Part shown: piece by piece, positions 1-530 of the stretch | How the letters are laid out: every line of letters starts with the position of its first letter | Position numbering within the stretch: the first letter of the stretch is position 1 | Source: Escherichia coli | Lineage (GTDB): Bacteria; Pseudomonadota; Gammaproteobacteria; Enterobacterales; Enterobacteriaceae | Assembly: GCF_003334765.1 (NCBI RefSeq) | Contig: NZ_QOWT01000114.1 | Direction: 5' to 3' (one strand) | Length of the DNA stretch: 530 nucleotides | Notes under the pieces: model-generated | What the model was told of the DNA's origin: nothing | What the model saw: only the letters and a program-made list of their open reading frames with translations | Database searches by the model: none | Translations under genes and position numbers: made by a program

Positions 1-57
1 GTCCTTCATCGCCTCTGACTGCCAGGGCATCCACCGTGTACGCTTAGTCGCTTAACC
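1..57 (-). rRNA. rrl: 23S ribosomal RNA, 5'-terminal fragment (gene continues beyond the window start)
   Basis: The reverse complement of 1-57 reads GGTTAAGCGACTAAGCGTACACGGTGGATGCCCTGGCAGTCAGAGGCGATGAAGGAC, which I recognise as the canonical 5' end of enterobacterial 23S rRNA. Mature 5' end placed at plus-strand position 57 from recalled E. coli sequence, not from a search. Confidence 0.93.
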
Positions 58-164
58 TCACAACCCGAAGATGTTTCTTACGATTCATCATCGTGTTGCG
101 AAAATTTGAGAGACTCACGAACAACTTTCGTTGTTCAGTGTTTCAATTTTCAGCTTGATCCAGA

Positions 165-177
165 TTTTTAAAGAGCA
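165..177 (-). promoter_or_regulatory. Spacer boxA-like transcription antitermination element (NusB/NusE binding site in rrn transcripts)
   Basis: The minus strand reads 5'-TTGCTCTTTAAAAATCTGG-3' across 160-178. Its core TGCTCTTTAAAAA matches the boxA consensus TGCTCTTTAACAA at 12 of 13 positions. A second boxA in the 16S-23S spacer is an established feature of E. coli rrn operons. Confidence 0.65.
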
Positions 178-217
178 AATATCTCAAACATCACCCGAAG
201 ATGAGTTTTGAGATATT
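178..217 (-). other. Extended imperfect hairpin in the spacer RNA with a C(UUCG)G tetraloop
   Basis: Plus-strand 178-188 (AATATCTCAAA) is the perfect reverse complement of 207-217 (TTTGAGATATT), giving an 11-bp outer stem. Inside it, CATC (189-192) pairs with GATG (200-203), with a 3-nt bulge at 204-206. On the transcribed strand the apex reads CAUC-UUCG-GGUG, a stable tetraloop closed by C-G with a U-G wobble. Confidence 0.6.
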
Positions 218-250
218 AAGGCAGGTGACTTTCACTCACAAACCAGCAAG

Positions 251-326
251 TGGCGTCCCCTAGGGGATTCGAACCCCTGTTACCGCCGTGAAAGGGCGGT
301 GTCCTGGGCCTCTAGACGAAGGGGAC
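251..326 (-). tRNA. gltT/U/V/W: tRNA-Glu (anticodon UUC), complete 76-nt gene with encoded 3' CCA
   Basis: The reverse complement of 251-326 is GTCCCCTTCGTCTAGAGGCCCAGGACACCGCCCTTTCACGGCGGTAACAGGGGTTCGAATCCCCTAGGGGACGCCA. It has a 7-bp acceptor stem (GUCCCCU/AGGGGAC), a 5-bp anticodon stem (CCGCC/GGCGG) and a 7-nt loop CU-UUC-AC; the anticodon corresponds to plus 290-292 (gaa). The T-arm GGTTCGAATCC and terminal CCA (plus 251-253) are present. It matches the E. coli tRNA-Glu of the spacer-Glu rrn operons. The paralog cannot be decided from this window; minus-strand placement would fit gltW of rrnG only if the contig follows K-12 orientation. Confidence 0.97.
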
Positions 327-497: not shown

Positions 498-530
498 TAA
501 GGAGGTGATCCAACCGCAGGTTCCCCTACG
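498..530 (-). rRNA. rrs: 16S ribosomal RNA, 3'-terminal fragment (gene continues beyond the window end)
   Basis: The reverse complement of 498-530 reads CGTAGGGGAACCTGCGGTTGGATCACCTCCTTA, the conserved 3' end of bacterial 16S rRNA including the anti-Shine-Dalgarno CCUCC. Mature 3' end placed at plus 498. Confidence 0.95.

Follow-up and report, generated by a model that had tools for sequence, protein, structure and literature searches.

A covarying hairpin directly upstream of the spacer boxA in Escherichia coli rrn operons, very probably the boxB of a nut-like site

In the ribosomal RNA operons of E. coli boxB-boxA occurs a second time, in the spacer that precedes the 23S gene, an element credited to Berg, Squires and Squires (1989, J Mol Biol 209:345) where that work is cited in PMC2724277. 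Spacer boxB-boxA elements in E. coli rrn operons appear likewise in PMC10250234, PMC6614801 and PMC8632103. The spacer boxA is described in the literature as the binding site of NusB-S10. With NusB-S10 bound to boxA, and together with NusA, NusG, SuhB and S4, the rrn antitermination and RNA-chaperone complex is built or maintained. This complex is described as ensuring efficient 23S synthesis and as keeping the 5' flank of 23S near RNA polymerase for pairing with the trailer. That the spacer boxA is needed for efficient 23S synthesis is also stated in the title of Pfeiffer and Hartmann (1997, J Mol Biol 265:385). The site in the rrn leader is worked by the same machinery of Nus factors, SuhB and S4. 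As for boxB, 30S activity and growth are hardly or not at all affected when it is deleted from the leader (PMC10250234), it is dispensable for rrn antitermination under most conditions (PMC8632103), and its presence in rrn operons has been called "puzzling" (PMC10250234). In the rrn complex as described by cryo-EM, proteins touch boxA and the linker between boxA and boxC, and boxB is not among the listed contacts.

The stretch of DNA studied here, which we call the window, is 530 bases long and represents the antisense strand of an E. coli rrn operon spacer. The 16S end, the tRNA-Glu gene and the 23S start all lie on the minus strand, so the minus strand is the transcript, and along it the order runs from the 16S 3' end through tRNA-Glu and the spacer to the 23S 5' end (Table 1). 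Many E. coli chromosomes contain a stretch that is 100% identical to the window, and a match was found in each of the complete E. coli genomes searched (5426/5426). One identical copy, in E. coli FORC 064, lies at the rrnB locus downstream of murI according to the RefSeq annotation. The hairpin segment occurs in a median of 4 copies per E. coli genome; four Glu-type rrn operons are expected in each. The spacer allele of the window is common, and it differs from others only outside the hairpin.

Table 1. Coordinates of features along the window; ranges refer to window positions.
Feature	Position	Strand	Basis
23S rRNA 5' end, first 57 nt	1..57	minus	Rfam LSU model positions 1-57; RefSeq annotation
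Spacer segment 3' of boxA, 5' strand of the 23S leader-trailer (RNase III) helix	58..164	minus	Co-fold with the 23S trailer
Rfam StyR-44 (RF01830)	173..65	minus	124.9 bits; model begins inside boxA
Spacer boxA UGCUCUUUAAAAA	165..177	minus	Sequence; core UGCUCUUUAA at 177..168
Hairpin, very probable boxB of the spacer nut-like site	178..217	minus	Folds; inverted repeat I2; covariation; chance estimate
Small conserved hairpin GUGA[GUGAAAG]UCAC, between tRNA-Glu and the boxB hairpin	225..239	minus	Folds; alifold on 10 homologues
tRNA-Glu (UUC), 5' of the boxB hairpin in the transcript	251..326	minus	ARAGORN; Rfam tRNA 60.1 bits; RefSeq annotation
16S rRNA 3' end, last 33 nt	498..530	minus	Rfam SSU model positions 1501-1533; RefSeq annotation of an identical copy

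Read along the transcript from 217 to 178, the hairpin has the sequence AAUAUCUCAAA-AC-UCAUC-UUCG-GGUGA-UG-UUUGAGAUAUU. The outer stem pairs 217..207 with 188..178 and is perfect over 11 bp. It is followed by a 2x2 internal loop, formed by AC (206..205) and UG (190..189), and by an inner stem in which 204..200 pair with 195..191. The UUCG tetraloop (199..196) sits on the closing pair C200-G195. A sequence-only reading of the window had already described the perfect 11-bp outer stem and the C(UUCG)G apex on the transcript strand (200..195), and both can be read directly at these positions. It had also described an inner stem of 4 bp; the stem is there, and its size was slightly undercounted, as it consists of 5 bp, four Watson-Crick pairs and U201.G194. 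Sequence and coordinates of the hairpin are hence confirmed.

The folding of the minus-strand RNA, which the same reading had proposed as a check, came out in its favour. The hairpin reaches a minimum free energy of -15.8 kcal/mol against -5.0 ± 2.05 kcal/mol for 200 dinucleotide shuffles (z = -5.27), none of which (0/200) is as stable, and it is kept in a 56-nt context, in a 193-nt context and in a co-fold with the 23S trailer. The repeat finder returns it as an inverted repeat. That such a stem is improbable by chance had also been claimed, and among 1000 dinucleotide shuffles of the window just 2 have a perfect inverted repeat of 11 bp or more with 3-25 nt between its arms. The opposite strand folds less stably (-12.1 kcal/mol against the -15.8 kcal/mol of the transcript strand), the transcript strand making use of G.U pairs. 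In an Rfam scan no family above threshold covers 217..178. Matches to SNORD24 and ceN33 were dismissed as chance, their scores being far below the gathering scores. The terminator and promoter scan returned nothing at the hairpin site.

The hairpin ends at position 178 and boxA starts at 177, and thus the gap between them is 0 nt. In the transcript the hairpin (217..178) precedes the boxA core (177..168) directly, just as had been read from the window. The spacer boxA UGCUCUUUAAAAA and the leader boxA UGCUCUUUAACAA of the same operon agree at 12 of 13 positions. Beyond the spacer boxA, in the direction of 23S, we found no boxC (UGUGUGGG-like) within 1 mismatch on the transcript strand, and matches with 2 mismatches are no commoner than expected by chance. 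The absence of boxC is not decisive for assigning the site to the nut-like class because the 1989 definition of the spacer element, in the form in which it is cited, names only boxB-boxA.

When the spacer was co-folded with the 23S trailer of one rrn locus (L122), the 23S leader-trailer helix began right after boxA, boxA was unpaired and the hairpin stayed local. In this co-fold UCUGGAUCAAGCUGAAAAU (164..146) pairs with the trailer segment AUUUUCAGCCUGAUACAGA, and CAUCUUCGGGUUGUGA (73..58) pairs with the trailer beside the 23S 3' end (both L122 6679-6735). We considered whether the hairpin is part of the 23S RNase III stalk and rejected this, as the stalk is formed by 164..146 and 73..58 and the hairpin remains local. 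Two further observations concern these pairings. The long-range trailer pairing shares bases with a local stem of StyR-44 (GCUGAAAAUUG/CAAAUUUUCGC); since both use the same bases, the leader-trailer pairing and the local stem are alternative folds. In addition, an 11-nt direct repeat on the minus strand, CAUCUUCGGGU, occurs at 193-203 in the hairpin apex and at 63-73 in the 5' strand of the 23S RNase III stalk. In theory this repeat would allow the apex to form a duplex with the 23S trailer (energy -20.1 kcal/mol). The repeat is not conserved, other apex sequences being found in other Enterobacteriaceae and in E. coli F1053, and it is probably coincidental or the result of local conversion.

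For the comparison among species, relatives were collected without presupposing the stem, by a pattern made of boxA and its downstream flank (TGCTCTTTAAMAATNTGGA) with one genome per species, which gave at least 120 loci. From the matches listed and one metagenome contig we aligned 16 distinct Enterobacterales homologues of the window hairpin, from Escherichia, Enterobacter, Citrobacter, Rosenbergiella, Brenneria, Rahnella, Photorhabdus and the metagenome contig. A metagenome scan anchored on the tRNA-Glu 3' end and boxA found a single locus, and the covariation sets therefore stayed at 16 sequences for the Glu type and 8 for the Ile/Ala type; both are small and their sequences are phylogenetically non-independent. 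Among the 16 homologues standard pairs fill 95.6% of the pair cells, a share that falls to 23-46% once the 3' partners are shifted by 1-3 columns. Changes on both sides of a pair are seen at 7 of 16 pairs, and 0 of 500 column shuffles reach the covariation score of the alignment. In the outer stem C-G is replaced by U-A in 8 sequences, and in Photorhabdus U-A has become G-C and A-U has become U-A. The inner stem alternates between UCAUC/GGUGA and UGACU/AGUCA, and U.G is found at two pairs in 5-6 sequences. RNAalifold independently predicts the same hairpin. We were thus able to show that the hairpin is maintained by compensatory substitutions. The sequence-only reading had staked itself on compensatory covariation across species, and such covariation is what the alignment contains.

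A rare allele in E. coli F1053 (NZ_OY757949.1 4407371-4407497) keeps the outer stem exactly and replaces the apex UCAUC-UUCG-GGUGA by AGACU-GUUA-AGUCU, with pairing kept. This swap, and the two apex types seen in Enterobacter and Citrobacter, resemble a cassette-style replacement of the inner stem. It might be possible that the apex is replaced via recombination between rrn copies or between species.

The arrangement is not confined to spacers with tRNA-Glu. In the Ile/Ala-type spacer of E. coli the sequence is identical from boxA onward, and just 5' of boxA lies an unrelated hairpin, ACUUCAGAGUGUACCUGAAAAGGUUCACUGCGAAGU, whose fold ends 3 nt before boxA. In the family of this hairpin (8 sequences) 97.3% of the pair cells are paired and double changes occur at 7 of 15 pairs. 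Among the matches listed, 69 of 84 unique proteobacterial spacers, sites that are not phylogenetically independent, have a hairpin (at least 5 bp, -3 kcal/mol or lower) ending 0-3 nt before boxA, compared to 36% for dinucleotide-shuffled upstream sequence. In the same 84 listed spacers a median of 1 nt separates the hairpin from boxA (4 nt after shuffling), and the median free energy of the hairpin is -12.4 against -6.2 kcal/mol. The hairpin sequences themselves are unrelated among Vibrio, Photobacterium, Pseudoalteromonas, Shewanella, Enterobacterales and beta-proteobacteria. Apical tetraloops are the commonest apex of boxA-adjacent hairpins (39 of 66). Extra-stable UNCG or GNRA tetraloops cap 18 of the 66 and dominate in Enterobacterales, UNCG in the Glu type and GNRA in the Ile/Ala type. 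In rrn leaders from the same loci a hairpin ends 0-3 nt before the leader boxA at 15 of 15 sites examined, and boxC follows. The position of the hairpin is kept after tRNA-Ala, where its sequence is unrelated, and in leaders without a tRNA. The conserved relation is therefore the one to boxA and not the one to the tRNA.

Some spacers of this collection show features worth recording for their own sake. In Rosenbergiella (two pairs of loci) the same boxB hairpin (UAUCUUAAAG..CUUUAAGAUA) stands after both tRNA-Glu-type and tRNA-Ala-type spacers, which suggests that the boxB-boxA module has been homogenised between operon types in this genus. In E. coli, Enterobacter, Citrobacter, Rahnella and Photorhabdus the hairpin of one spacer type is unrelated to that of the other. 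At three loci of Shewanella and Parashewanella a long perfect stem followed by 7 U precedes the spacer boxA (GCCAAAGAUAAAU...AUUUAUCUUUGGC UUUUUUU AGCC). Stem and U run resemble an intrinsic terminator placed inside an rRNA operon, just 5' of the antitermination signal.

Two further hairpins of the window deserve mention. The small hairpin between tRNA-Glu and the boxB hairpin (Table 1) is extended by G-C pairs between 243-244 and 220-221. Its 7-nt loop, GUGAAAG, is invariant in 10 Enterobacterales spacers of the Glu type and its stem changes completely, the counterpart being GAUAAUGU/ACAUUAUC in Rahnella and GAUGACGG/CCGUCGUC in Photorhabdus. Compensatory changes are found at 6 of 7 predicted pairs. 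An invariant loop on a covarying stem suggests that this hairpin may be a recognition site. To our knowledge no function has been described for it. It is a neighbour of the boxB hairpin, and its membership in the nut-like site is only putative. A strong palindrome lies in the spacer between 16S and tRNA-Glu, at 339-357 on the plus strand, equivalent to 325-366 on the minus strand (ACACGAAAAU...AUUUUCGUGU, with the inner part UAUCACGC/GCGUGAUA). It corresponds to the repeats I1, I5 and I7, and the terminator scan flags it on the plus strand, which is not the transcript strand. On the transcript this palindrome stands immediately 5' of tRNA-Glu.

Several other explanations of the boxB hairpin have to be considered. 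At the level of DNA it could be a palindrome, for example the site of a dimeric protein, or simply a chance inverted repeat. The DNA does contain an inverted repeat here, and the opposite strand folds too. However, the shuffled windows argue against chance, the swap of the whole apex keeps the pairing and not the sequence, and unrelated sequences are found at the same spot. Moreover G.U, which can pair on the transcript strand only, serves as the intermediate at several of the varying pairs, and an RNA structure is therefore favoured over a DNA palindrome; we find a reading at the DNA level scarcely credible. The hairpin might also be a pause or terminator-like signal that slows RNA polymerase just after boxB and so lets the complex assemble on boxA. 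A stable hairpin in nascent RNA followed by a U-rich boxA (UGCUCUUU) would fit this, as would the stem and U run of some Shewanella spacers. Against it stand the A/U-rich base of the stem and the tail UGCUCUUUAAAAA, which has no U tract. A pause stabilised by a hairpin about 11 nt downstream would leave boxA inside the polymerase, and the rrn complex is described in the literature as suppressing hairpin-dependent pausing. An intrinsic (Rho-independent) terminator was rejected in the same way, given this tail and the lack of any terminator scan site at 178-217 on either strand. On balance a pausing role is very unlikely.

A role in RNA processing or stability, unrelated to Nus factors, would make the hairpin a barrier to the nucleases that free tRNA-Glu and trim the spacer, or a structure that they recognise. 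In its favour, the spacer is cut up and degraded, the hairpin follows tRNA-Glu at a distance of 33 nt, and the second conserved hairpin stands between the two. Yet the position relative to boxA persists after tRNA-Ala and in leaders that have no tRNA, and the helix is shorter and more interrupted than the 23S leader-trailer stalk, in which it takes no part in the co-fold. We therefore consider a processing element improbable, if somewhat less so than a pause signal. The hairpin could finally act as a folding insulator: with its extra-stable tetraloop it would quickly lock the upstream sequence so that boxA stays single-stranded, no protein touching the helix. The prevalence of tetraloops, with UNCG and GNRA in Enterobacterales, is what fast autonomous folding would lead one to expect, and boxA is indeed unpaired in the co-fold. 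In contrast, the mean unpaired probability of boxA across 81 sites is 0.48 with the native and 0.46 with the shuffled upstream sequence (Wilcoxon p = 0.36), and the accessibility of boxA in the window is equalled or bettered in 28% of shuffles. Because this test considers equilibrium folding of short fragments, the result weakens the insulator without doing more than that, and we hold such a role to be unlikely, though a more serious candidate than a processing element.

The reading that we prefer is that the hairpin is the boxB of a nut-like boxB-boxA site in the 16S-23S spacer of a tRNA-Glu-type rrn operon; we regard this as very probable. As a partner of boxA it would be an accessory module that works independently of its sequence. 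Selection may act on an A-form helix that directly abuts boxA on its 5' side, and such a helix would be helpful rather than essential. The mechanism that might fit best can be drawn from crystal work on NusB-NusE. In the Aquifex complex a site for double-stranded RNA was occupied by a crystallisation duplex; in that work the site was related to lambda boxB and not to rrn. A site of this kind would match a helix on the 5' side of boxA, at a gap of 0-3 nt and of any sequence. Tentatively, and with more doubt than confidence, we suggest that the boxB hairpins of rrn operons, including that of the window, may be a working half of the NusB-S10 binding site. If this were true, it would account for the conservation of structure alone, for the gap of 0-3 nt that is kept in leaders and spacers of proteobacteria, and for the place of boxB before boxA in rrn. 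It would also answer why rrn operons retain boxB in a host without N protein. The spacing, the unrelated sequences at the same position, the extra-stable tetraloops and the apex swaps sharpen the question of the "puzzling" boxB into a testable one.

Features by which a nut-like site is recognised are found here: a location in the primary rrn transcript between 16S and 23S, a stable stem-loop 5' of boxA on the transcript strand, a consensus boxA (UGCUCUUUAACAA-like) directly 3' of this stem-loop, and a structure that is conserved across relatives when the sequence is not. From the location in the rrn spacer, the order of hairpin and boxA and the description in the literature it follows that the hairpin is very probably the known spacer boxB. 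The proposal that it is a boxB-like partner of boxA is thereby borne out, by the locus, by the adjacent consensus boxA, by the covariation and by the earlier description of spacer boxB-boxA. A functional RNA element was thus recognised correctly from the letters alone. The spacer boxB-boxA element was described as early as 1989, and for this reason the observation by itself adds nothing new.

Within the same genome the boxB of the Ile/Ala-type spacer is comparable. It too stands 5' of the identical boxA, has 13-15 bp with an internal loop and covaries, but it has no sequence similarity to the window hairpin and its loop is GNRA (GAAA, GUGA or GCGA) instead of UNCG. The boxB-boxA-boxC of the rrn leader, the nut-like site after promoter P2, shares the hairpin 5' of boxA at a gap of 0-3 nt and the same boxA core. 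Its hairpin differs in being shorter (7-13 bp, with about -8 to -15 kcal/mol in most of 15 leaders) and unrelated in sequence; in Enterobacteriaceae it ends 2-3 nt before boxA, and a boxC, UGUGUGGG, follows. StyR-44 of Rfam (RF01830) belongs to the same spacer, and the hairpin lies outside this model, which covers 173..65.

The nut site of phage lambda resembles the window in having a hairpin beside boxA in a nascent-RNA signal that depends on Nus factors. The order is reversed, however, with boxA, spacer and boxB in lambda and the hairpin 5' of boxA in the window. The lambda boxB has a 5-bp stem and a purine-rich, GNRA-like pentaloop and is read by N, whereas the window has an interrupted stem of 16 bp and a UUCG tetraloop. 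N protein is absent from the host (PMC10250234). A lambda-type, N-binding boxB is ruled out by the UUCG loop, the 11+5 bp stem, the position 5' of boxA and the lack of N in the host, and the label boxB is used here for a positional and structural analogue of the lambda element. The Box-B helix and Box-A of the cyanobacterial 16S-23S ITS, which are used in taxonomy, share the nomenclature and the combination of a spacer helix with boxA. They come from a distant phylum and have different sequences, and they are likened to the window by name and arrangement. The cyanobacterial nomenclature shows that a boxB-boxA arrangement in the spacer is widely recognised. The spacer antiterminator of Berg et al., matched by its description, has a stem-loop directly followed by boxA upstream of 23S; we see no substantive difference from the window and take the two to be the same element.
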